From contig DAHWNL010000039.1 in NCBI GenBank assembly GCA_027339965.1, positions 37,073 through 101,072 on the forward strand: 64,000 bases of DNA, given 5' to 3'. The notes below the pieces were generated by a model. That model did not search any database. It was given only the letters and a program-made list of their open reading frames with translations, and was not told the origin of the DNA. Both the position numbers and the translations under genes were made by a program. The stretch comes from Granulicella sp. Lineage in GTDB: Bacteria; Acidobacteriota; Terriglobia; Terriglobales; Acidobacteriaceae. Below are positions 21,286 through 31,210 of the stretch, piece after piece. Positions within the stretch are counted from its first letter, which is position 1. Every line of letters starts with the position of its first letter.

Positions 21286-22041
21286 CGGCGCGATCGCGTT
21301 CCGTGCCCGATCGCGACGCCGTGCCGAAGGATTGCAAAGAGCGCCGCGGACAAGCCTGCACCCGCAACCAAGTGACGGCTACAGGCAAGGCTGGAACTGC
21401 CCGAGGGTGAGCGCAAGCCTGGGGCGAAGTGTCCTGAACGGATCCATCGGAGAAGACCATCCGCTGCGGGAGCACGGACTTCCGGTTCGGATGGAGTTCT
21501 CTACCCTGCGATCAGCGCGGCGACAGGAAGCCAGCACGGATAGCCCGCTTGAAAATGCCGGCAGAACCTTGTTGAAGAACAAAGTTTCGGGCAAAAAACT
21601 ATTCCAATCCGTTACCTAGCTGCGCTTGACTGTGTAACAGCGTCAGACGCTCCACCATCGGCTGCGGCCCGTCTGCTGCTCCAGTGTGTCTTCGACAAAC
21701 TCTCAGGCGCCTTGCAGCTGTGTCGGAACGATCCACCGCGCATCGGCGGCTCACCCTCCTTCCATCGGATTGGTGGCGAAGGCTTGTCTCCTCTTCGCTT
21801 GGCTGGGGCGATTCTTTAGAATTTAGCGATCTTAGGACCGACGCAAAATATTTTTCCCTTCTCTGTAACGATTGGGGCCATGGATGTCTTTCTTATAGTG
21901 TCAGCAGCATCACCCGGGATCTCCGAGATCACCGCTGAACTGAGGATCGTGGACTTCGATTGAGGTGAGAGTTACCGCTGCGGTATCCTCTTGACCGTCA
22001 TCGATTTCAAAAGAAATGCTGCAAGCAGAGGGCCGGAGGGT

Positions 22042-23409
22042 ATGCGCATAGCAGGTCTGAGAAAAGGATGGATTGTGCTGTTTGGAGGGCTCTTGGGGGC
22101 CAGTTCCCTCTCCGCCGCCGCACAGCAGCCGTCGCTGACGCTACGGCAGGCGATTGACCGGGCGCTGGGAAGGAATCCAGAGATAGCAGCAGCAAAGGCG
22201 GATGCGCAGTCCGCGGGTGCGGGAGCCACCCTAGCGCGAACCGGGTTGTTCCCAACTTTCAACTTCACCGAGGATATCTCGCGCGGCAACGATCCGGTCT
22301 ATGTCTTTGGAACCAGGCTGCGGCAACAGCAGTTCACTCAGAGCGATTTTGCGCTCAACTCGTTGAACAAACCCGCTCCCGTAGGAGACTTCGTTACCCG
22401 ATTCAACGGTTCTTGGAGGATCTTCGACTGGTTTGAAACCCAACAGCAGATGAAGGGCGCCAAGCTGGCGGCTGGAAGTGCGACGGCGGTAAGCGATGCG
22501 GTAGAGCAGGCGACGGTTCTGCGCGTGGTAGAGGCCTATCAGTCGATCTTGTTTGCCCAACGGCGAATTGATGTTGCCCAACACGAGCAGACCACCGCGC
22601 AAGCGCTGCTGGCGGATGCCAAGGCCAACGTAAAAGCCGGGCTGGCTGTGGACTCCGACACACTGGCTGCACAGGTGAACCTCTCCGAGCGGGAGCAGGA
22701 GTTGATTGCCGCCCAGGGAGAGATGGATATTGCCTGGGCCAGGTTGGAGACGGCCATGGGAAGCGCAATGCCGGTTCGCCCGGCATTGACGCCAATCGAA
22801 GCGCGGAACTATCCCGATGGCGTGCTCTCTGAAGAGATTGCCAGTGCCCTGAAGATGCGGCCCGATCTGCACGCGTTGGAAGAGCAACAACGGGCGCAGG
22901 CGGCAGCCACCAAGGCAGCCAGGGATGATTTTGGGCCCAAGGTGAGCGCATACGGCAACTGGGAGATGGACAGGAGTTCCTTTGTCGGCAACGGAGGCAA
23001 CAATTGGGTTGCCGGGGTTCAACTCACGATGGATATCCTCCCGATGGGGAAACGGTCTCGCCTGGCCCAGGAAGAGGCGGCGCGCGAGAAGGCCGCGGCC
23101 CAGGAGCGGACCGGCGAAGACCAGATTCGCCTGGCGGTTCGCCGCGCTTACAGCCAGCATGTGACGGCTGAGCGCATCGTGGCGACAGCTCAGTCCTCCA
23201 TGCGGCAAGCCACTGAAAGCCTCCGGATCATGCGGAACCGTTACAAGGCTGGACTCACCACCATGACGGATCTGCTGCGTGCGGAGGATGCCCGGCGGTT
23301 GAGCCAGACCGATTACTGGCAAGCGGTTTATGGAAACACCATGGCGTATGCCGAGTTGCTCTATGCCACCGGCGCGCTTACTCCTGACTCAGCGGAGAAT
23401 CTGCAATGA
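22042..23409 (+). CDS. TolC family outer membrane efflux protein
   Basis: Signal peptide, LTLRQAIDRALGRNP, RYKAGLTTMTDLLRAE; GGAGG RBS. Confidence 0.92.
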   Translation: MRIAGLRKGWIVLFGGLLGASSLSAAAQQPSLTLRQAIDRALGRNPEIAAAKADAQSAGAGATLARTGLFPTFNFTEDISRGNDPVYVFGTRLRQQQFTQSDFALNSLNKPAPVGDFVTRFNGSWRIFDWFETQQQMKGAKLAAGSATAVSDAVEQATVLRVVEAYQSILFAQRRIDVAQHEQTTAQALLADAKANVKAGLAVDSDTLAAQVNLSEREQELIAAQGEMDIAWARLETAMGSAMPVRPALTPIEARNYPDGVLSEEIASALKMRPDLHALEEQQRAQAAATKAARDDFGPKVSAYGNWEMDRSSFVGNGGNNWVAGVQLTMDILPMGKRSRLAQEEAAREKAAAQERTGEDQIRLAVRRAYSQHVTAERIVATAQSSMRQATESLRIMRNRYKAGLTTMTDLLRAEDARRLSQTDYWQAVYGNTMAYAELLYATGALTPDSAENLQ

Positions 23410-24578
23410 AGAGCTCGATCAAGTCCTTGTACCCTCTGTTTTCCTTACCCTTGTTGTTTTCCATGTCCGTGGCGCTGCCGACGGGTTGTTCCAGGCAGGC
23501 ACCGCCCGTGGCTCAAGCTCCGGTGAGCGTCTCCGCGCAACTTGTCAAAAGCGTTCGACAACCAGAGCCCCAGTGGGTGTGGACCAACGGAACCGTGCAT
23601 GCGGTGGAGTCGGCTCAGATCTCTGCGCAAGTGCCCCAACCCATCCGCCAGGTGTTGGTGCAGGCTGGTGCGCATGTCCGCACCGGCCAGGTGCTGGTGA
23701 TCCTGGACGACGCGGCGATGCGCGCAGCGCTGAACCGAGCTAACGCCGCCGAGGCTGCCGTGGAGAAAGAGTGGATGGCGGCGCGCACCGATGCTTCGCT
23801 GGCCGCCGGCACGCTGGCTCGCTACCAGGAACTGAGGCAGCAAAACAGCGTGAGTCCACAGGAGTTCGATGAGGTGGAGAAGCGCTCGGAAGCTGCTCAA
23901 CTGCACGTGCAGTCAGTCGGCGCAGAGCGCGAAGAGGCGCAGGCGGCGGTGGCGGAGGCTGAGACAGAACTGGGATATACACGGCTGCGAGCGCCGTACA
24001 GCGGTGTGATCACGGCGCGGCTGGCCGATCCTGGAACGCTGGCATCCCCCGGGACGCCGCTGTTGCAGATAGATCACGATGGACCTATGCAACTGTATAC
24101 GCAGGTGGATGAGTCGCTGATCAGTACGGTGCGAGTGGGGATGAAGGTGCCAGTGAAGATGGAAGGCGCGCCCTCGGCGACCGCGGTCGCCGGAACATCC
24201 TCAGGGTTCGGTGAGGATCTGGTGGCAACCGTAGCCCAGATCGTTCCCGCAGCAGACCCTTCCAGCCGCAGCTTTCAGGTGAAGCTGCAGCTCCCGCCAG
24301 CCAATGGGATCCGTGTGGGAATCTATGGAACCGCGGGCTTCCAGAGCGGAGCCCGAGTGATGATCCTGGCGCCGCGTTCGGCAGTGGTGATGCGAGGCTC
24401 CCTGGCCTGCGTCTACGCCCTGGATAGCCATGGCCTGGCACAACTGCGATACGTCACCTTGGGCAACCAGCATGGGGATCAATTGGAGATTCTCTCCGGG
24501 CTCTCCGGCGGGGAGGATCTAGTGAATGATCCGGGGGAACGGGATCTCTCGGGAGCGCGGATTGAGGGTCAGCCATGA
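23406..24578 (+). CDS. RND efflux periplasmic adaptor subunit
   Basis: Lipobox-like PTGC, LRAPYSGVITAR..DPG, DPSSRSFQVK, EILSGL. Confidence 0.93.
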   Translation: MKSSIKSLYPLFSLPLLFSMSVALPTGCSRQAPPVAQAPVSVSAQLVKSVRQPEPQWVWTNGTVHAVESAQISAQVPQPIRQVLVQAGAHVRTGQVLVILDDAAMRAALNRANAAEAAVEKEWMAARTDASLAAGTLARYQELRQQNSVSPQEFDEVEKRSEAAQLHVQSVGAEREEAQAAVAEAETELGYTRLRAPYSGVITARLADPGTLASPGTPLLQIDHDGPMQLYTQVDESLISTVRVGMKVPVKMEGAPSATAVAGTSSGFGEDLVATVAQIVPAADPSSRSFQVKLQLPPANGIRVGIYGTAGFQSGARVMILAPRSAVVMRGSLACVYALDSHGLAQLRYVTLGNQHGDQLEILSGLSGGEDLVNDPGERDLSGARIEGQP

Positions 24579-27500
24579 AAGAGCCCGGGAAAGACAATTT
24601 GCTAAGACACCGGCAACTCGGTCCAGCGGGCCATCTGGCCCACGCCTTTCTGGACTCCAAGTTGACTCCGCTGATTATCCTGGCATCGCTCGTCCTGGGT
24701 ATCTTCGCGGTGGTGGCGATTCCGCGCGAGGAAGACCCCCAGATCCTGGTGCCGATGCTGGATGTGATGACCGCGATGCCGGGCAGCTCTCCACAGGAGG
24801 TGGAACAGCGGGTCACCAACCCGATTGAAGCTCTCATGCACCAGATCCCAGGAGTGGAGTATGTGTACTCCATCTCCAGCCCGGGGCAGAGCCTGGTGAT
24901 CGTGCGCTTCCTGGTAGGGACGCCAGAGGGTGATGCTCTGGTGAAGGTTTACAACAAGCTCTACGCGAATGAGGACCGGATCCCGGCGGGCGTTTCGCCA
25001 CCGCTGGTGAAGGTACACTCCATCGATGATGTGCCGATTCTTTCGCTCACCTTATGGGGCTCTCACTACAACGGCTATCAGTTGCGCCAGATGGCTGATG
25101 AGGTGGAGCACACCATCCGCGAGATCCCGGACGTCTCTGAAACCACAGTGATCGGAGGTCAACCACGCGCGATGCGCGTCGTTCTGGACAGCACGAAGCT
25201 GGCCGCATTTGGCATCTCTCCCGATGTGGTAGTCCAACGCTTGAGGAGCGCCAATGCCCGCACTCAAGCCGGAGAGTTCGCCGAGGGAAATCAGGAGATT
25301 CAGGTCGACGCGGGCAATGTGTTTCGAAATACCGAAGACCTTGCGGGGGTTGTGGTTGGGGTTGACGGAGGGCGTCCGATCTATCTCCGTGATGTCGCCG
25401 AGAAGATCGTTGATGGGCCGGCCGATTCCACGGACTACGTCCTTTTTGGCAATACGGTGCTGAGCGCCCACGGTTCACCAGCCCAAGAGTATCCCGCGGT
25501 GACCATCGCCATCGCCAAGCGCAAGGGGTCCAACGCCACAGACGTTGCCAACGCGGTATTGAAGCGAATCTCCTCAATGCGTGGGATTACTTTGCCCGCC
25601 GATGTCACCGTTACGACGACCCGAAACTATGGAGAAACGGCGGAGCAGAAGTCCAACACGCTTCTGGAACATCTGTCGTTGGCCACCGTCTCCGTGACGA
25701 TCCTTGTGGCGCTTTTTCTCGGCTGGAGAGAGTCCGGAGTGGTGCTGTTGGCGGTCCCTGTGACCCTGGCGCTGACATTGGCAGTCTTCTATGTGCTGGG
25801 ATACACCCTGAATCGAGTCACGCTGTTTGCCTTGATCTTCAGCATCGGAATCCTGGTGGATGACGCCATTGTGGTGGTGGAGAATATCGTCCGCCACCTG
25901 CGTTTGACCCGAGGCAGCCGGTGCCCGCCGGGCGAAACGGCCGTGATCGCCGTAGCGGAGGTGGGCAATCCTACCATCCTGGCGACCTTTACCGTGATCG
26001 CAGCGATTCTTCCCATGGCCATGGTGCGCGGCCTGATGGGCCCCTACATGCGGCCCATCCCGGTGGGAGCTTCGTTCGCCATGTTGTTCTCGTTGATGGT
26101 GGCCTTCGTGGTCTCTCCCTGGGCAGCGATACGGCTGCTGGGGAGCAAGCACCTGGAAGGAGCGCATACCTTCGAGGAGGAGAAGGAAGGCTGGCTGGTG
26201 AGAGTATACCGGCGGTCCATGCACCCTCTGATCTACAAGGCCAAGACCCGCTGGCTCTTCCTTGGCACGCTGGTTGTTCTGCTGCTGGCCTCCATCGCTC
26301 TGGTGCCGCTGAAGATGGTGCTGGTGAAGATGCTCCCGTTCGATAACAAGAGCGAGTTTCAGGTCATCATCAACATGCCGGATGGAACGCCGCTGGAGCA
26401 GACCACGCGAGTGGCGCAGGCGCTGGGTTCCTGCCTGAGCCGGCAAAATGATGTGCTCAACTATCAGATCTATGCGGGAACCTCCGGGCCATATAACTTC
26501 AACGGACTGGTTCGGCACTACTATATGCGACGTCAGCCCAATCAGGCGGACATTCAAGTGAACCTGCTGCCGCCAGAGGAGCGAAGCCTGCAGAGCCACG
26601 CCATCGCAAAGCAATTGCGTCCTCTACTGGACCAGATAGGGAGCCGTTTCGGAGCCCGCATCCAGGTGGCCGAGGTGCCTCCCGGCCCGCCCGTCTTACA
26701 GACTTTGGTAGCCGAAATCTATGGTCCCAGCCTGCAGGGCCAGGTGGCAATCGCTCGCCAGGTGAAGCAGATCTTCCAAGACACCAACGGGGTTGTGGAT
26801 ACGGATTGGTACATGCAGGATCCCCAACAGCGATTGGTGATGCGTGTGGATGAGGCCAAGGCGGCGCTGCATGGGGTCCCCGTGGCCGAGGTCGCACAGA
26901 CCCTGCAATTGGCGGTATCTGGCCAGGACGCCGGTCTGTTGCACTCCCCCCATGCCCGCGAGGCAGTTCCGACGGTGGTGGAGATGGCTCGTCCGGACCG
27001 CTCCTCCGAGGACGCGCTGGAGAACATCAAACTGAGTGGCGCCGGCGGTGGAATGGTATCGCTGCGGGAGTTGGTGGATGTTGAACACACCACGATTCAA
27101 CCGGATATCTACCATAAAGACCTGAAAAGAGTGGTTTATGTAACAGGCGATGTGGCAGGAGCGGAAGAGAGCCCAGTCTACGCGATTCTGAAGATGAACC
27201 GGGCACTGGACAAGCTGCGGCTCCCGGATGGATCCACTTTGACACGCTATAACGCCGTAGAGCCAGAGTCAACCGATCAATACTCGATGAAGTGGGATGG
27301 TGAGTGGCAGATCACGATCGAGGTCTTTCGTGATCTTGGGCTTGCCTTTGCCGCGGTTCTGGTCCTGATCTACATCCTAGTGGTAGGTTGGTTCCGATCC
27401 TTCATGACGCCGCTGGTCATCATGGTTCCCATACCGCTAACGCTGGTTGGAATCTTCGCCGCGCATGCCATGCTCGGAGCGTTTTTTACCGCGACCTCGA

Positions 27501-27850
27501 TGATCGGTTTCATTGCCGGCGCGGGCATCATCGTTCGCAACTCCATCCTTGTGGTGGACTTCATTGAACTGCGCCTCAAGGAGGGTATGCCGCTGGCGGA
27601 AGCAGTCATAGATGCTGGAGCCGTCCGGCTTCGCCCAGTGCTGCTAACTGCTGCCGGCGTCGTTGTGGGAGCGGCCGCCATTTTGAGTGATCCCATCTTT
27701 CAGGGCCTGGCAATTTCGCTGATCGCGGGTGGAGTTGCATCCACCTTCTTATCCTGGCCTGCCATCCCAGTCCTGTACTACCTCTTGCATCGGGAGCAGG
27801 AAGCGGTCAAGCATCCATCCCACGTCTCGGAGCCGGAAACGGCAAACTAG
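24575..27850 (+). CDS. RND efflux permease (AcrB/CusA superfamily)
   Basis: 1091 aa, PREEDPQI, GILVDDAIVVVENI, RLRPVLLTA. Confidence 0.96.
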   Translation: MKEPGKDNLLRHRQLGPAGHLAHAFLDSKLTPLIILASLVLGIFAVVAIPREEDPQILVPMLDVMTAMPGSSPQEVEQRVTNPIEALMHQIPGVEYVYSISSPGQSLVIVRFLVGTPEGDALVKVYNKLYANEDRIPAGVSPPLVKVHSIDDVPILSLTLWGSHYNGYQLRQMADEVEHTIREIPDVSETTVIGGQPRAMRVVLDSTKLAAFGISPDVVVQRLRSANARTQAGEFAEGNQEIQVDAGNVFRNTEDLAGVVVGVDGGRPIYLRDVAEKIVDGPADSTDYVLFGNTVLSAHGSPAQEYPAVTIAIAKRKGSNATDVANAVLKRISSMRGITLPADVTVTTTRNYGETAEQKSNTLLEHLSLATVSVTILVALFLGWRESGVVLLAVPVTLALTLAVFYVLGYTLNRVTLFALIFSIGILVDDAIVVVENIVRHLRLTRGSRCPPGETAVIAVAEVGNPTILATFTVIAAILPMAMVRGLMGPYMRPIPVGASFAMLFSLMVAFVVSPWAAIRLLGSKHLEGAHTFEEEKEGWLVRVYRRSMHPLIYKAKTRWLFLGTLVVLLLASIALVPLKMVLVKMLPFDNKSEFQVIINMPDGTPLEQTTRVAQALGSCLSRQNDVLNYQIYAGTSGPYNFNGLVRHYYMRRQPNQADIQVNLLPPEERSLQSHAIAKQLRPLLDQIGSRFGARIQVAEVPPGPPVLQTLVAEIYGPSLQGQVAIARQVKQIFQDTNGVVDTDWYMQDPQQRLVMRVDEAKAALHGVPVAEVAQTLQLAVSGQDAGLLHSPHAREAVPTVVEMARPDRSSEDALENIKLSGAGGGMVSLRELVDVEHTTIQPDIYHKDLKRVVYVTGDVAGAEESPVYAILKMNRALDKLRLPDGSTLTRYNAVEPESTDQYSMKWDGEWQITIEVFRDLGLAFAAVLVLIYILVVGWFRSFMTPLVIMVPIPLTLVGIFAAHAMLGAFFTATSMIGFIAGAGIIVRNSILVVDFIELRLKEGMPLAEAVIDAGAVRLRPVLLTAAGVVVGAAAILSDPIFQGLAISLIAGGVASTFLSWPAIPVLYYLLHREQEAVKHPSHVSEPETAN

Positions 27851-28214
27851 AAGGGAGGAGCTAACATCTAGCATAGAGTGAGTCTTTGAGGCGGAATGAC
27901 TGCGTCCCGGGATGTTTCATCCAGCCCCTAGGCTAGCCTCCGCAGCGAAGGAAACTTCCACCTCGACGACGAGATTCACAGCGGACTCTCCGGCAAATAG
28001 ATCTGCTGGAGGCAGGGAGGGCTGAGCAGAAGCACTGAGGCGTTTCGCGATGGCGGTAAGGCAGGAGCCAAAACCGCCTGGACAAGCGAATCTCCAGAAG
28101 TCGTCCACCACGGGCTCAAGAACCAGAAGGTATCTGAGACTTGCTTAACTTCTGTCATCCTTCAAGGCGAGACAAACCCCAGCAATGCGTCGACAACGAT
28201 CCAAGGGAGTATCG

Positions 28215-29669
28215 ATGAGGCACACAAACCGGATCCACATAACCACTCTGTCCGCGGTCATTGCGCTGACCGCAGTTTCTTTGACCACCTGCCCCGCAAC
28301 TCTCGCACAGACTTCGCATGATCTTGTTGCTCAGGAATTCCCGAATCAGTATGATCCAGGGAATCTGCCTGACAGCCGCATGGCGTCGTTGTATCCAAAA
28401 CAATGGACGACGTACGCTTCAGCACCCGGAAGAAATGCCGTCTTTCCCCTTCCCGGCTCGGCCCCACGGGAGTTGAGGGATGGCGTGAAATGGGCCTTCG
28501 CCGGGGCCGGCGCCATTTCGCTTGACGGACCGCCCCTCAGCGGAGACTTCAAGACTACGGCTTATACCATCGGTATGCCGGTAGGGGTCTCCGTCGTCAA
28601 GGGCATTGTCTATGCCGGAGATGACAACGGCTACACCTACGCCCTGAACGCCGCAACAGGAAAGATGATCTGGGCGCACTACGGCTGGAACATGAATATG
28701 AGCAATCCCCTGGTTGACGGCGGCCGCGTCTTCGTCTCTACGGGCAACGCCTACTTCAACTATGCCAAGACAATGGAGTATGTGAAGGGTAGACGAACAG
28801 TGCGGGGGCCGGGTCTGAACACGATCTATGCCCTGGATAGCAGGACCGGGAAGCAGATCTGGGCCTACCATACGCCCGGCGAGATTATGCCGACTCCGGT
28901 CGACATCAATGGCTTCCTTTATGTAGGAACGGGAGACGGCCATGTCTACAAGGTCGATGCGAATGATGGAAAACTCGTCTGGAAGACGGATATCCAATCA
29001 TTCGTCAGCATGTCGTCACCCGTGGCCGGGGCCGGCAACATCTTCCTCGGCGGCACCTACCCCAACTACTTTTATGCCATAAGTCAGACCACAGGGAAGG
29101 TGGCATGGAAGACTACGATTCCGGGTCTGGTAGCCACAGGCATCAGCGATTGCACCCCGGCTTATGCCGCAGGGATTGTGGTCCAGGAGGCGACCATCGA
29201 GTCTGGGAATCCGAATCATCCGGTTGCGAATGTCCTGCTTGCGATGGATGCTAAAACCGGAAAGATCCTTTGGCAATATCGGATGACCAACGGACCCGTA
29301 CCACCAGCGATGAAGACGGCAACGCCGATGATCGATGCGGGTGTTGTTTATGAAGGGAGCCCGGTGAGCGGTAACTATCACGCCTTTGATCTAAAAACGG
29401 GCCGGCAGCTTTGGACGGTTCATCTCGGTAGTTCGATCCGGGCTGGAGCAGCCGTGCTGAATGGAGTAGCCTACATTCCCTATCACCTCGGAGACATCGC
29501 CGCGATTCGCGTCTCCGATGGTAAAATCCTCGGCAAACTGCATATCGGAGGCTCTTTTGGGCCGTCTTCCCCGGTGATCGTTGGGGGGACGCTCTACGTT
29601 TCCAACATCTACGGCTGGGTGAACGCCATTCCACTTACAGAGATTGCCAATCCTGAAGCCAAACACTGA
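28215..29669 (+). CDS. tetH: Secreted PQQ-type beta-propeller protein, probable tetrathionate hydrolase homolog
   Basis: Sec signal and repeated YALxxxTGKxxW blades. Colinear motifs recalled from Acidithiobacillus TetH: NAVFP.P..AP..LRDGVKW.F, TPGEIMPTP, TIPG..TGISD, PAMK..PMI, HIGGSFG..SPVIVGGTLY. Confidence 0.72.
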   Translation: MRHTNRIHITTLSAVIALTAVSLTTCPATLAQTSHDLVAQEFPNQYDPGNLPDSRMASLYPKQWTTYASAPGRNAVFPLPGSAPRELRDGVKWAFAGAGAISLDGPPLSGDFKTTAYTIGMPVGVSVVKGIVYAGDDNGYTYALNAATGKMIWAHYGWNMNMSNPLVDGGRVFVSTGNAYFNYAKTMEYVKGRRTVRGPGLNTIYALDSRTGKQIWAYHTPGEIMPTPVDINGFLYVGTGDGHVYKVDANDGKLVWKTDIQSFVSMSSPVAGAGNIFLGGTYPNYFYAISQTTGKVAWKTTIPGLVATGISDCTPAYAAGIVVQEATIESGNPNHPVANVLLAMDAKTGKILWQYRMTNGPVPPAMKTATPMIDAGVVYEGSPVSGNYHAFDLKTGRQLWTVHLGSSIRAGAAVLNGVAYIPYHLGDIAAIRVSDGKILGKLHIGGSFGPSSPVIVGGTLYVSNIYGWVNAIPLTEIANPEAKH

Positions 29670-29954: not shown

Positions 29955-30164
29955 ATGACTGTTGATCGCGTACTTCGTATGCTTGCCGGCACTGTTATCC
30001 TCATCTCACTGGGTCTCGCGCATTGGGTCTCACCTGACTGGTTGTGGTTGACAGCGTTTGTAGGTCTAAACCTGTTCCAGTCCGCGTTTACGAACTGGTG
30101 CCCCATGATGACCGTCCTGCGGATGATGAAAGTGCCGGAATCGGGCGCGGTGAAATGCGGATGA
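29955..30164 (+). CDS. DUF2892 / YgaP-like transmembrane protein
   Basis: MTVDRVLRMLAG...LTAFVGLNLFQSAFTNWCP; strong AAGGAGG RBS. Confidence 0.9.
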   Translation: MTVDRVLRMLAGTVILISLGLAHWVSPDWLWLTAFVGLNLFQSAFTNWCPMMTVLRMMKVPESGAVKCG

Positions 30165-30769
30165 ACGAGAGAACATTTCCCGCCTCTCAAGCACAGCGTC
30201 TAGAAGATCCGGAGCGGCTGGTGTGGCTCCCACCGGCGGAGGTGCTCTCCGCATTGGGAATCCAAAACGGTATGACGGTTGCAGACATTGGCGCCGGTAC
30301 GGGCTATTTTTCCTTGCCGCTCGCCGCCGCTGCAGGCCCCACAGGACGAGTGTATGCCGTAGATGCCCAGGAAGAGATGCTGGATTGGATCAACAAAAAG
30401 ATCCAGAAGAACAGGGCAACTGACGGAGCACCACTCGCCGAGATTGTTCTTGTGCACGCCGATGCGACGGCCACCACATTGCCGGACGCAAGCTGTCATG
30501 TTTACTGGTGCGCTAACGTGTGGCATGAGTTGGAGGAACGTGCCAAGGTACTTGCGGAGGCCAAGCGGGTGCTAAAGCCAGGAGGCAGACTCGCCCTTTT
30601 GGATTGGCGGCCTGATGTCGAGCGGATCGCCGGACCTCCATTGGACCACAGAATAACCACCGAGGCGGTGATGGAGGAGCTAAAGAGTTCGGGCTTCCAG
30701 GGTGCGTCGACTGGCTGTGTTGGTCCATATTCCTGGCTAGTCCAGGCAGATGCATCCCCATCAAATTGA
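30161..30769 (+). CDS. Class I SAM-dependent methyltransferase
   Basis: VADIGAGTGY, VYAVD, RVLKPGGRL; ATGA overlap with DUF2892. Confidence 0.92.
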   Translation: MNERTFPASQAQRLEDPERLVWLPPAEVLSALGIQNGMTVADIGAGTGYFSLPLAAAAGPTGRVYAVDAQEEMLDWINKKIQKNRATDGAPLAEIVLVHADATATTLPDASCHVYWCANVWHELEERAKVLAEAKRVLKPGGRLALLDWRPDVERIAGPPLDHRITTEAVMEELKSSGFQGASTGCVGPYSWLVQADASPSN

Positions 30770-30820
30770 AATACTTCGGCGAAGGCTGAAGAACGAACAA
30801 TCAGAAGAGGAGCTGTGCAG

Positions 30821-31210
30821 ATGGAAGTGAAGCTTACCCACCCCGGGAAGATGAGGTTTCGCGTTGAGGCAAGGAGCCATGTCATCGAGAGCGATCAGCC
30901 CTTGGAGGCCGGCGGCGAGGATAAGGGAATGACACCCCTGGAGCTGTTGTTGGCTTCTCTAGCATCGTGTGCAGGCTTCTATGCCTCTCAGTACCTCTCC
31001 AGCCGCAAACTGGCCGACCACGGAGTGGAGGTCGTTGTCACTGCCGAGAAGTTGAAGGATCCGCCACGACTCGGAAACTTTGTAATCAAGGTGAAGAGCC
31101 CGGTAAGCCTGACGGAGGATCAACGTGTGGGGATGGAGCGTTCGGTACACCGATGCACCATTCACCAGACGCTCATCAACACGCCCAAGATCGATATCGA
31201 ACTGGAGTGA
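30821..31210 (+). CDS. OsmC/Ohr family protein
   Basis: DQP..AGGEDKGMTPLELLLASLASC and a second Cys in RCTIHQTL. Confidence 0.92.
   Translation: MEVKLTHPGKMRFRVEARSHVIESDQPLEAGGEDKGMTPLELLLASLASCAGFYASQYLSSRKLADHGVEVVVTAEKLKDPPRLGNFVIKVKSPVSLTEDQRVGMERSVHRCTIHQTLINTPKIDIELE

Follow-up and report, generated by a model that had tools for sequence, protein, structure and literature searches.

The window, a 64,000-nucleotide stretch of a contig from a Granulicella sp. genome (family Acidobacteriaceae), carries a gene for a 484-residue protein (P0001, hereafter the hydrolase). By sequence and fold, it belongs to the tetrathionate hydrolase family and is a full-length relative of the Acidithiobacillus ferrooxidans enzyme (Af-Tth; TetH, AFE_0029). 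Tetrathionate hydrolases split tetrathionate, with sulfate, thiosulfate and sulfur as the products (reaction 2 in PMC10859504). The gene occurs in one copy only in the 3.82-Mb genome and has the following elements, the Met positions being counted from the alignment with Af-Tth:

28203..28209, + strand: ribosome-binding site AAGGGAG, with GGGAG conserved in 3/3 aligned relatives
28215..29669, + strand: P0001, eight-bladed beta-propeller of the tetrathionate hydrolase family, 484 residues (open frame; sequence and fold matches)
28215..28307, + strand: probable Sec signal peptide, residues 1-31 (by eye and hydropathy)
28698..28700, + strand: Met162, aligned with Met172 of Af-Tth (96/96 relatives)
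28887..28889, + strand: Met225, aligned with Met238 of Af-Tth (96/96 relatives)
29010..29012, + strand: Met266, aligned with Met279 of Af-Tth (96/96 relatives)
29148..29150, + strand: Asp312, counterpart of the catalytic Asp325 of Af-Tth (96/96 relatives)
29151..29153, + strand: Cys313, the sole Cys of the mature hydrolase, Val in Af-Tth (95/96 relatives)

We place the start at ATG 28215 because of the ribosome-binding site and the conservation of GGGAG and of the ATG itself (3/3 aligned relatives). A longer open reading frame (ORF) from the upstream ATG 28185 was ruled out, that ATG being absent from one of the three relatives. A promoter scan upstream of the gene found no site. The N-terminus has a basic start and a hydrophobic core, and the confidence of the structure model (predicted local distance difference test, pLDDT) is low up to residue 38. 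Judged from these features, residues 1-31 are a probable Sec signal and the protein would be exported. No canonical lipobox was seen by eye.

In a search of the PDB that matched 47 sequences, the hydrolase found Af-Tth on top (6L8A and 7CQY, 309.6 and 307 bits over residues 47-478, E 3.5e-91). The next entry scored 101 bits and the best BamB 73.8 bits, with an alignment limited to residues about 213-406. The four motifs by which the first-pass annotation had linked the protein to Af-Tth are present in both proteins: NAVFPLPGSAP...GVKWAF in the hydrolase and NAAFPVPDDAP...GVSWLF in Af-Tth, TPGEIMPTP and TPGETMATP, TIPGLVATGISD and TIPGASNTGIGD, and finally HIGGSFGPSSPVIVGGT and HIGGQFGIESPVIVGGT. 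A structure model based on 96 relatives (pLDDT 84, predicted template modelling score 0.85) displays the eight-bladed fold of Af-Tth. Foldseek matched it to the top Af-Tth chains with template modelling scores of 0.84-0.90 at about 2 Å and 39-40% identity. Using VIA, model residues 35-480 superposed on Af-Tth with Z 57.5-58.1 over 412-436 residues (root-mean-square deviation 1.5-1.7 Å), taking in the N-terminal extension, whereas BamB reached Z 32-36 over about 320 residues.

Pfam recognises only PQQ_2 and PQQ in the hydrolase, and the seven NCBIfam families that match it all do so below their cut-offs. The BamB models, with cut-offs of 285 and 423, gave 119 bits, and the pyrroloquinoline quinone (PQQ) dehydrogenase models TIGR03075, TIGR03074 and TIGR04528 gave 79, 43 and 77 bits against 480, 833 and 650. 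No vicinal Cys pair occurs in the sequence. On the PDB scores, NCBIfam cut-offs and structural alignment, we rejected an identity as BamB or PQQ dehydrogenase. The source labels of relatives nevertheless include BamB and polyvinyl alcohol dehydrogenase; in UniRef, two relatives at 75% and about 72% identity are named 'Putative tetrathionate hydrolase'. Because Pfam and NCBIfam give no family name, surveys overlook genes of this clade, labelling them BamB or PQQ proteins, much as the first-pass annotation had expected of automated pipelines.

The Asp codon (GAT) singled out in that annotation as catalytic aligns with the sole site that is D in 6L8A and N in 7CQY, which corresponds to the D325N mutant. 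This mutation abolishes Af-Tth activity (PMC10859504). Our Af-Tth numbering uses an alignment offset of 29, verified on Asp325 and on Cys301 as named in the same article. Conservation was counted over the 96 aligned of 121 relatives at hand, all of which also retain Lys367 and Arg409 (96/96). The numbers 172, 238 and 279 are those of three pocket methionines listed under the Metallosphaera enzyme in PMC11818568, where three Met and basic residues are tied to the pocket of the archaeal enzymes. We further surveyed 41 hand-picked long-match representatives of the wider family (of 150 listed), dropping multi-repeat propellers and fragments. The Met and Lys/Arg columns of the hydrolase agree with the core group of these representatives. 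The catalytic column holds Asp in 33 of the 41, Glu in two and neither in six, with Asp found down to about 29% identity. The Glu forms are a Tth-like Bacillota pair (P0424 and P0442) that also has His replacing Arg. Five longer proteins of 690-1070 residues (P0390, P0398, P0400, P0472 and P0500) carry a C-terminal Tth-like propeller without the Asp and Met residues; these fused forms make up one clade (100/100).

For the phylogeny, two proxies took the place of assayed enzymes: P0409 (466 bits to 6L8A) and the Sulfolobaceae representative P0532 (253 bits, compared with 310 bits for the hydrolase against the same Af-Tth chain). In a 35-row tree, both proxies fall in a 25-row group (100/99) that also includes the query clade (100/100, with two outliers). 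Groups for the approximately unbiased (AU) test were named after the first tree had been seen. Nesting the query clade beside the Acidithiobacillus-like pair was borderline (p 0.051). Placing the long BamB branch on the query clade was not rejected (p 0.064), so this branch cannot serve to root the tree. The protein is a member of the Tth family in a clade of its own, possibly orthologous to the assayed enzymes, which are represented in the tree by the proxies.

Members of the clade come from Acidobacteriota, Bacteroidota and Proteobacteria and conserve the Cys beside the Asp. By record titles, the 46 full loci (61-92% identity) comprise 28 from Acidobacteriota, nine from Bacteroidota or Kryptoniota and nine from Proteobacteria. 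The phyla are interleaved in a 62-row quick tree, which suggests lateral spread. Among 20 wider-family clusters that were looked up, those with a taxon name belong mostly to acidophile lineages (Acidulodesulfobacterium, Sulfobacillus, Sulfoacidibacillus, Hydrogenisulfobacillus, Thermaerobacter-labelled bins and Sulfolobaceae); one has Sphingobium-labelled members.

Elsewhere in the host genome, unlinked to the hydrolase, a small operon encodes candidate partners:

contig C5, 19377-21873 (= L051:9378-11874), - strand: co-directional genes for a Tsd-like protein with a twin-arginine translocation (Tat) signal, an SBP_bac_11 binding protein and TsdA

The last gene product matches the thiosulfate dehydrogenase of A. 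vinosum (E 2e-42), possesses both CxxCH motifs and aligns with that TsdA at the haem-2 Met and the catalytic Cys. The gene between encodes a binding protein of the sulfate/molybdate type (SBP_bac_11). The first, the Tsd-like Tat protein, has a sole match, NF052225 thiosulfate dehydrogenase (E 3e-23). A PDB search with it gave no match, and an atlas search turned up no more than clusters without a name and one DsrE lead at 0.83. A second, stand-alone Tsd-like Tat protein is encoded at C22:658-1359 and is 37% identical to the C5 copy. This operon lends independent, sequence-based support to the inorganic sulfur metabolism that the first-pass annotation had proposed from the hydrolase gene.

In a sample of 400 genomes of the host family, the hydrolase is present in five, from five genera; the Tat Tsd-like protein is encoded in 33 of the 400, and 36 carry TsdA (including one unpublished genome). 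All five hydrolase carriers hold both partners; the hypergeometric values for this co-occurrence (3e-6 and 5e-6) overstate it, as kinship and habitat are shared. A binding protein lies downstream of the Tat gene in 8 of 11 other Tat loci examined. The 46 hydrolase genomes, a set overlapping with the family sample, hold TsdA in 30 cases, the Tsd-like protein in 26 and DoxDA in six, with at least one partner in 34 (21/28 Acidobacteriota, 4/9 Bacteroidota/Kryptoniota and 9/9 Proteobacteria). In one locus (L034), the hydrolase is followed in the gene row by a dihaem cytochrome c, the Tsd-like protein, the binding protein and TsdA. Another (L041), with a rhodanese nearby, has the hydrolase in a row with TauE, a Tsd scoring above the cut-off, the binding protein, DoxDA and a BigR-like fragment. 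A C5-type operon is present in about 8% of the family sample, mostly without the hydrolase and in several cases with cytochrome c genes in front; thiosulfate oxidation may be a broader trait of the family that has gone unreported.

The arrangement recalls A. ferrooxidans, where a Tat-type Tsd (AFE_0042), a binding protein (AFE_0043) and doxDA (AFE_0044) follow one another (PMC2754497, PMC6335251). As in the S4-intermediate pathway of that organism, a Tat Tsd-type gene precedes a binding protein gene and the hydrolase is encoded in the same genome. Given this shared order and TsdA as the last gene, the host operon reads as the Acidithiobacillus cassette with TsdA replacing DoxDA. The two differ in that the Tsd-like protein is divergent, that sulfide:quinone oxidoreductase (SQR) and the heterodisulfide reductase-like sulfur oxidation system (sHdr) were not found in the host, and that TsdA is stated in PMC6335251 not to be encoded in Acidithiobacillus. 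The hydrolase itself resembles Af-Tth in its full-length eight-bladed propeller, N-terminal extension, Asp and three Met, and would likewise be exported; it differs in its separate clade, in the Cys adjoining the Asp and in a host where no autotrophy marker was found. It also shares its family and the Asp (Asp353 there) with Acidianus ambivalens TTH1 and Metallosphaera cuprina TTH (PMC11818568). Erythrobacter flavus 21-3 offers a functional parallel: TsdA forms tetrathionate and a hydrolase frees sulfate and zero-valent sulfur. In contrast to our host, that hydrolase is of the SoxB type, not a propeller, and the sulfur is oxidised by SdoA/SdoB (PMC7608252), not identified here.

The host genome is 98.86% complete and 2.39% contaminated. 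Close duplicate gene pairs across contigs (C27/C42, C25/C44, C32/C40, C44/C80 and C81/C88) may stem from a second strain mixed into the bin. An acidobacterial host, as first proposed from the sequence, is borne out by housekeeping genes on the hydrolase contig (alanyl-tRNA synthetase, era and mreB, read by eye) and by the three closest loci, which have 89-92% identity and the same flanks and are deposited as Acidobacteria or Granulicella sp. The presumed heterotrophy also held up, in that neither RuBisCO nor acetyl-CoA synthase was found in the genome, with positive controls; by eye, the window is rich in glycoside-hydrolase-like genes. Sequencing runs holding most of the hydrolase gene comprise four from sediment (one study, possibly the source of this DNA), one unspecified and four from mine drainage (one study). 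The four mine-drainage runs hold 0.85-0.90 of the words of the DNA. No RNA run was among those listed.

Routes for further sulfur oxidation were sought in the same genome. SoxY was not found, nor was any YeeE/YedE. The 28 Pyr_redox_2 matches, of which 17 were read by eye, included no recognisable SQR. sHdr was not found either, the CCG matches resembling LutA and other oxidoreductases, and motifs for sulfur- and sulfite-oxidation enzymes gave no match. A single marginal DoxD match was rejected, as it scores better as DoxX. Three matches to the rhodanese domain all lie away from both the hydrolase and the cassette, and two glyoxalase-II-like proteins were left without assignment. A DsrE_2 gene at C82:84120-87255 (L049, L050) lies amid short pieces that resemble heterodisulfide reductase and CoA-disulfide reductase, apparently what is left of a decayed cluster; it was dismissed as a sign of sHdr, no sHdr cluster being seen there by eye. 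Contigs C70, C81 and C21 bear clusters of many multihaem cytochrome c genes, with up to 10 CxxCH motifs.

We propose a periplasmic loop in a heterotroph, in which an exported, cofactor-free hydrolase and the C5 operon together would turn thiosulfate into sulfur and sulfate and supply supplementary energy. Judged from the genes, this reading is reasonably probable as a whole; that the 484-residue protein hydrolyses tetrathionate is likely, and that the thiosulfate loop yields energy is somewhat favoured. TsdA would join two thiosulfate into tetrathionate and pass two electrons to respiration; the Tsd-like protein may assist it and the binding protein may feed it. If the mechanism of Af-Tth applies, Asp312 would protonate tetrathionate in the acidic periplasm, water would release sulfate, and the remainder would decay to thiosulfate and elemental sulfur. 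The net reaction would be S2O3(2-) + H2O -> S(0) + SO4(2-) + 2 H+ + 2 e-. The sulfur would accumulate, as it does in the TsdA-SoxB route of E. flavus (PMC7608252), since no SoxY, YeeE, SQR or sHdr was recognised in the host genome. With no carbon-fixation marker, Sox, SQR or sHdr found, the loop would serve the heterotroph as a supplementary energy source that leaves sulfur behind. A sugar-feeding acidobacterium from mine drainage could thus probably convert thiosulfate into sulfur and sulfuric acid.

Around the hydrolase, efflux genes take the place of the sigma-54 regulator (AFE_0027) found in A. ferrooxidans and of RsrRS-doxD in A. caldus (PMC10859504). The main neighbours are:

21991..27850, + strand: co-directional TolC-type, MFP and AcrB-type resistance-nodulation-division (RND) efflux genes upstream of the hydrolase (link uncertain)
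29955..30164, + strand: YgaP-like (DUF2892) small membrane protein (link uncertain)
30158..31210, + strand: S-adenosylmethionine (SAM) methyltransferase and OsmC-like genes downstream (pair seen only in the closest relatives)

The RND trio lies upstream of the hydrolase in 5 of the 46 related loci and the YgaP-like gene near it in five (six with a looser ORF list), both recurring beyond the closest relatives. They may export sulfur. Azospira genes of the RND and DUF2892 types are sulfide-induced, yet their deletion barely altered oxidation (PMC5358917), which makes the link to the hydrolase weak. A TetR-family gene stands directly upstream of the hydrolase in seven loci (L003-L008 and L011), in four of them beside a TlpA/ResA-like thioredoxin; resA is also part of the A. 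ferrooxidans tsd cluster. Between 30000 and 48000, the G+C content of the window drops to about 0.53, the genome as a whole having 0.61; this stretch, which encodes a cytochrome P450, a TonB-type receptor and glycoside-hydrolase-like proteins, is probably an acquired island. The hydrolase gene (G+C 0.56) lies at its edge.

According to a 2024 review, acidophilic autotrophic sulfur oxidisers are the only organisms from which tetrathionate hydrolases have been purified; it gives a specific activity of about 2-2.5 U/mg for Af-Tth (PMC10859504). The text of PMC11818568 names Sulfolobaceae, Acidithiobacillaceae, Alicyclobacillaceae, Sulfobacillus and Leptospirillum in the family network; in its accessible part, Acidobacteriota is not named. 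In the open literature, the accessible parts of PMC9040765, PMC10050440, PMC10367259, PMC12345210 and PMC13272565 hold no discussion of tetrathionate hydrolase in Acidobacteriota. The earlier suggestion that this lineage is not usually credited with TetH has at least one exception, in a tabulated call: Table S5 of a 2026 article gives Acidicapsa acidiphila DBS1H16 a tetH score of 1 and A. ferrireducens DBS9H11 a score of 0 (PMC13272565). The calls may be loose, because the table scores tsdA in 49 of 49 strains, and Acidicapsa is not named as a sulfur user in the accessible text. The kind of enzyme is known; what appears to be undescribed is the clade with its Asp-Cys pair, and the presence of the hybrid cassette in a heterotroph.

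Several observations weigh against the proposed loop. On the enzyme side, the query clade is sister to, not within, the 14-row group (93/88) that holds both proxies, and that group also contains the Glu pair and the Asp-less fused forms. Grouping the query clade with the nine core rows alone was rejected in the AU test (p 0.006), and the Asp, common to distant paralogues, is not by itself diagnostic of orthology. As for the partners, the host TsdA has Thr where A. vinosum has Lys208, TsdA enzymes are bidirectional (PMC5146829), no electron-acceptor gene adjoins tsdA, and the Tsd-like protein scores 82 bits, far under the NF052225 cut-off of 300. The partners are unlinked to the hydrolase in the host and adjoin it in just 2 of the 46 loci, and in 12 of the 46 genomes none of the three was found (completeness of the metagenome-assembled genomes not given). 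Habitat or ancestry can inflate the co-occurrence, which is suggestive rather than proof because cassette carriers cluster by genus and sister genomes hold the cassette without the hydrolase. A strain with a tetH call, DBS1H2, was moreover reported without sulfur redox activity (PMC13272565).

The unlinked and missing partners, the bidirectional TsdA and the lack of any route found for further sulfur oxidation would equally suit a genuine tetrathionate hydrolase that removes tetrathionate, a thiol oxidant frequent in mine water, or supplies sulfate and thiosulfate to assimilation, with TsdA acting as a reductase or separately. Neighbouring efflux, YgaP-like, OsmC, TetR and thioredoxin-like genes fit such a role. 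Since all five family carriers retain the oxidising cassette and the hydrolase adjoins it in two loci, one of them with DoxDA, we regard this explanation as unlikely. Slightly less credible is a paralogue that uses the Tth fold and Asp on another sulfur oxyanion (trithionate, higher polythionates or organic thiosulfates), perhaps via Cys313. The separate clade at 39-40% identity, the rejected exclusive grouping with core sequences and the near-invariant Cys, set against the Cys-independence of Af-Tth (PMC10859504), speak for it; the agreement of the three pocket Met and the Lys/Arg columns with the core group, the higher score to Af-Tth than that of the Sulfolobaceae representative and partners that make tetrathionate specifically speak against it. 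A third reading, a propeller of the BamB-like or generic PQQ type with no role in sulfur metabolism, could appeal to the PQQ_2 match, the source labels and the unrejected BamB branch. This reading is very improbable and already largely refuted by the scores, the cut-offs and the shorter sequence and structural alignments; presence in 5 of 400 family genomes is unlike a housekeeping factor, and no lipobox was seen. The periplasmic loop could also be extended to a general scheme, in which Acidobacteriaceae of acid habitats, along with some Bacteroidota/Kryptoniota and Proteobacteria, all presumed to be pure heterotrophs, became lithoheterotrophic thiosulfate oxidisers that release elemental sulfur and acid into mine drainage through an undescribed, laterally spread clade and the hybrid cassette, with the Asp-Cys pair handling sulfane sulfur and RND and YgaP-like proteins exporting it; this we put forward as a speculative possibility.

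The conversion of thiosulfate into sulfur and acid has so far been credited to specialist sulfur bacteria. If the hydrolase is active, common mine-drainage heterotrophs would join the known converters of thiosalts to sulfur and acid, and its natural Cys-beside-Asp variant would bear on how tetrathionate hydrolase releases sulfur, a step unexplained in Af-Tth. It would also give a testable role to the thiosulfate cassette, which about 8% of the family's sampled genomes carry.
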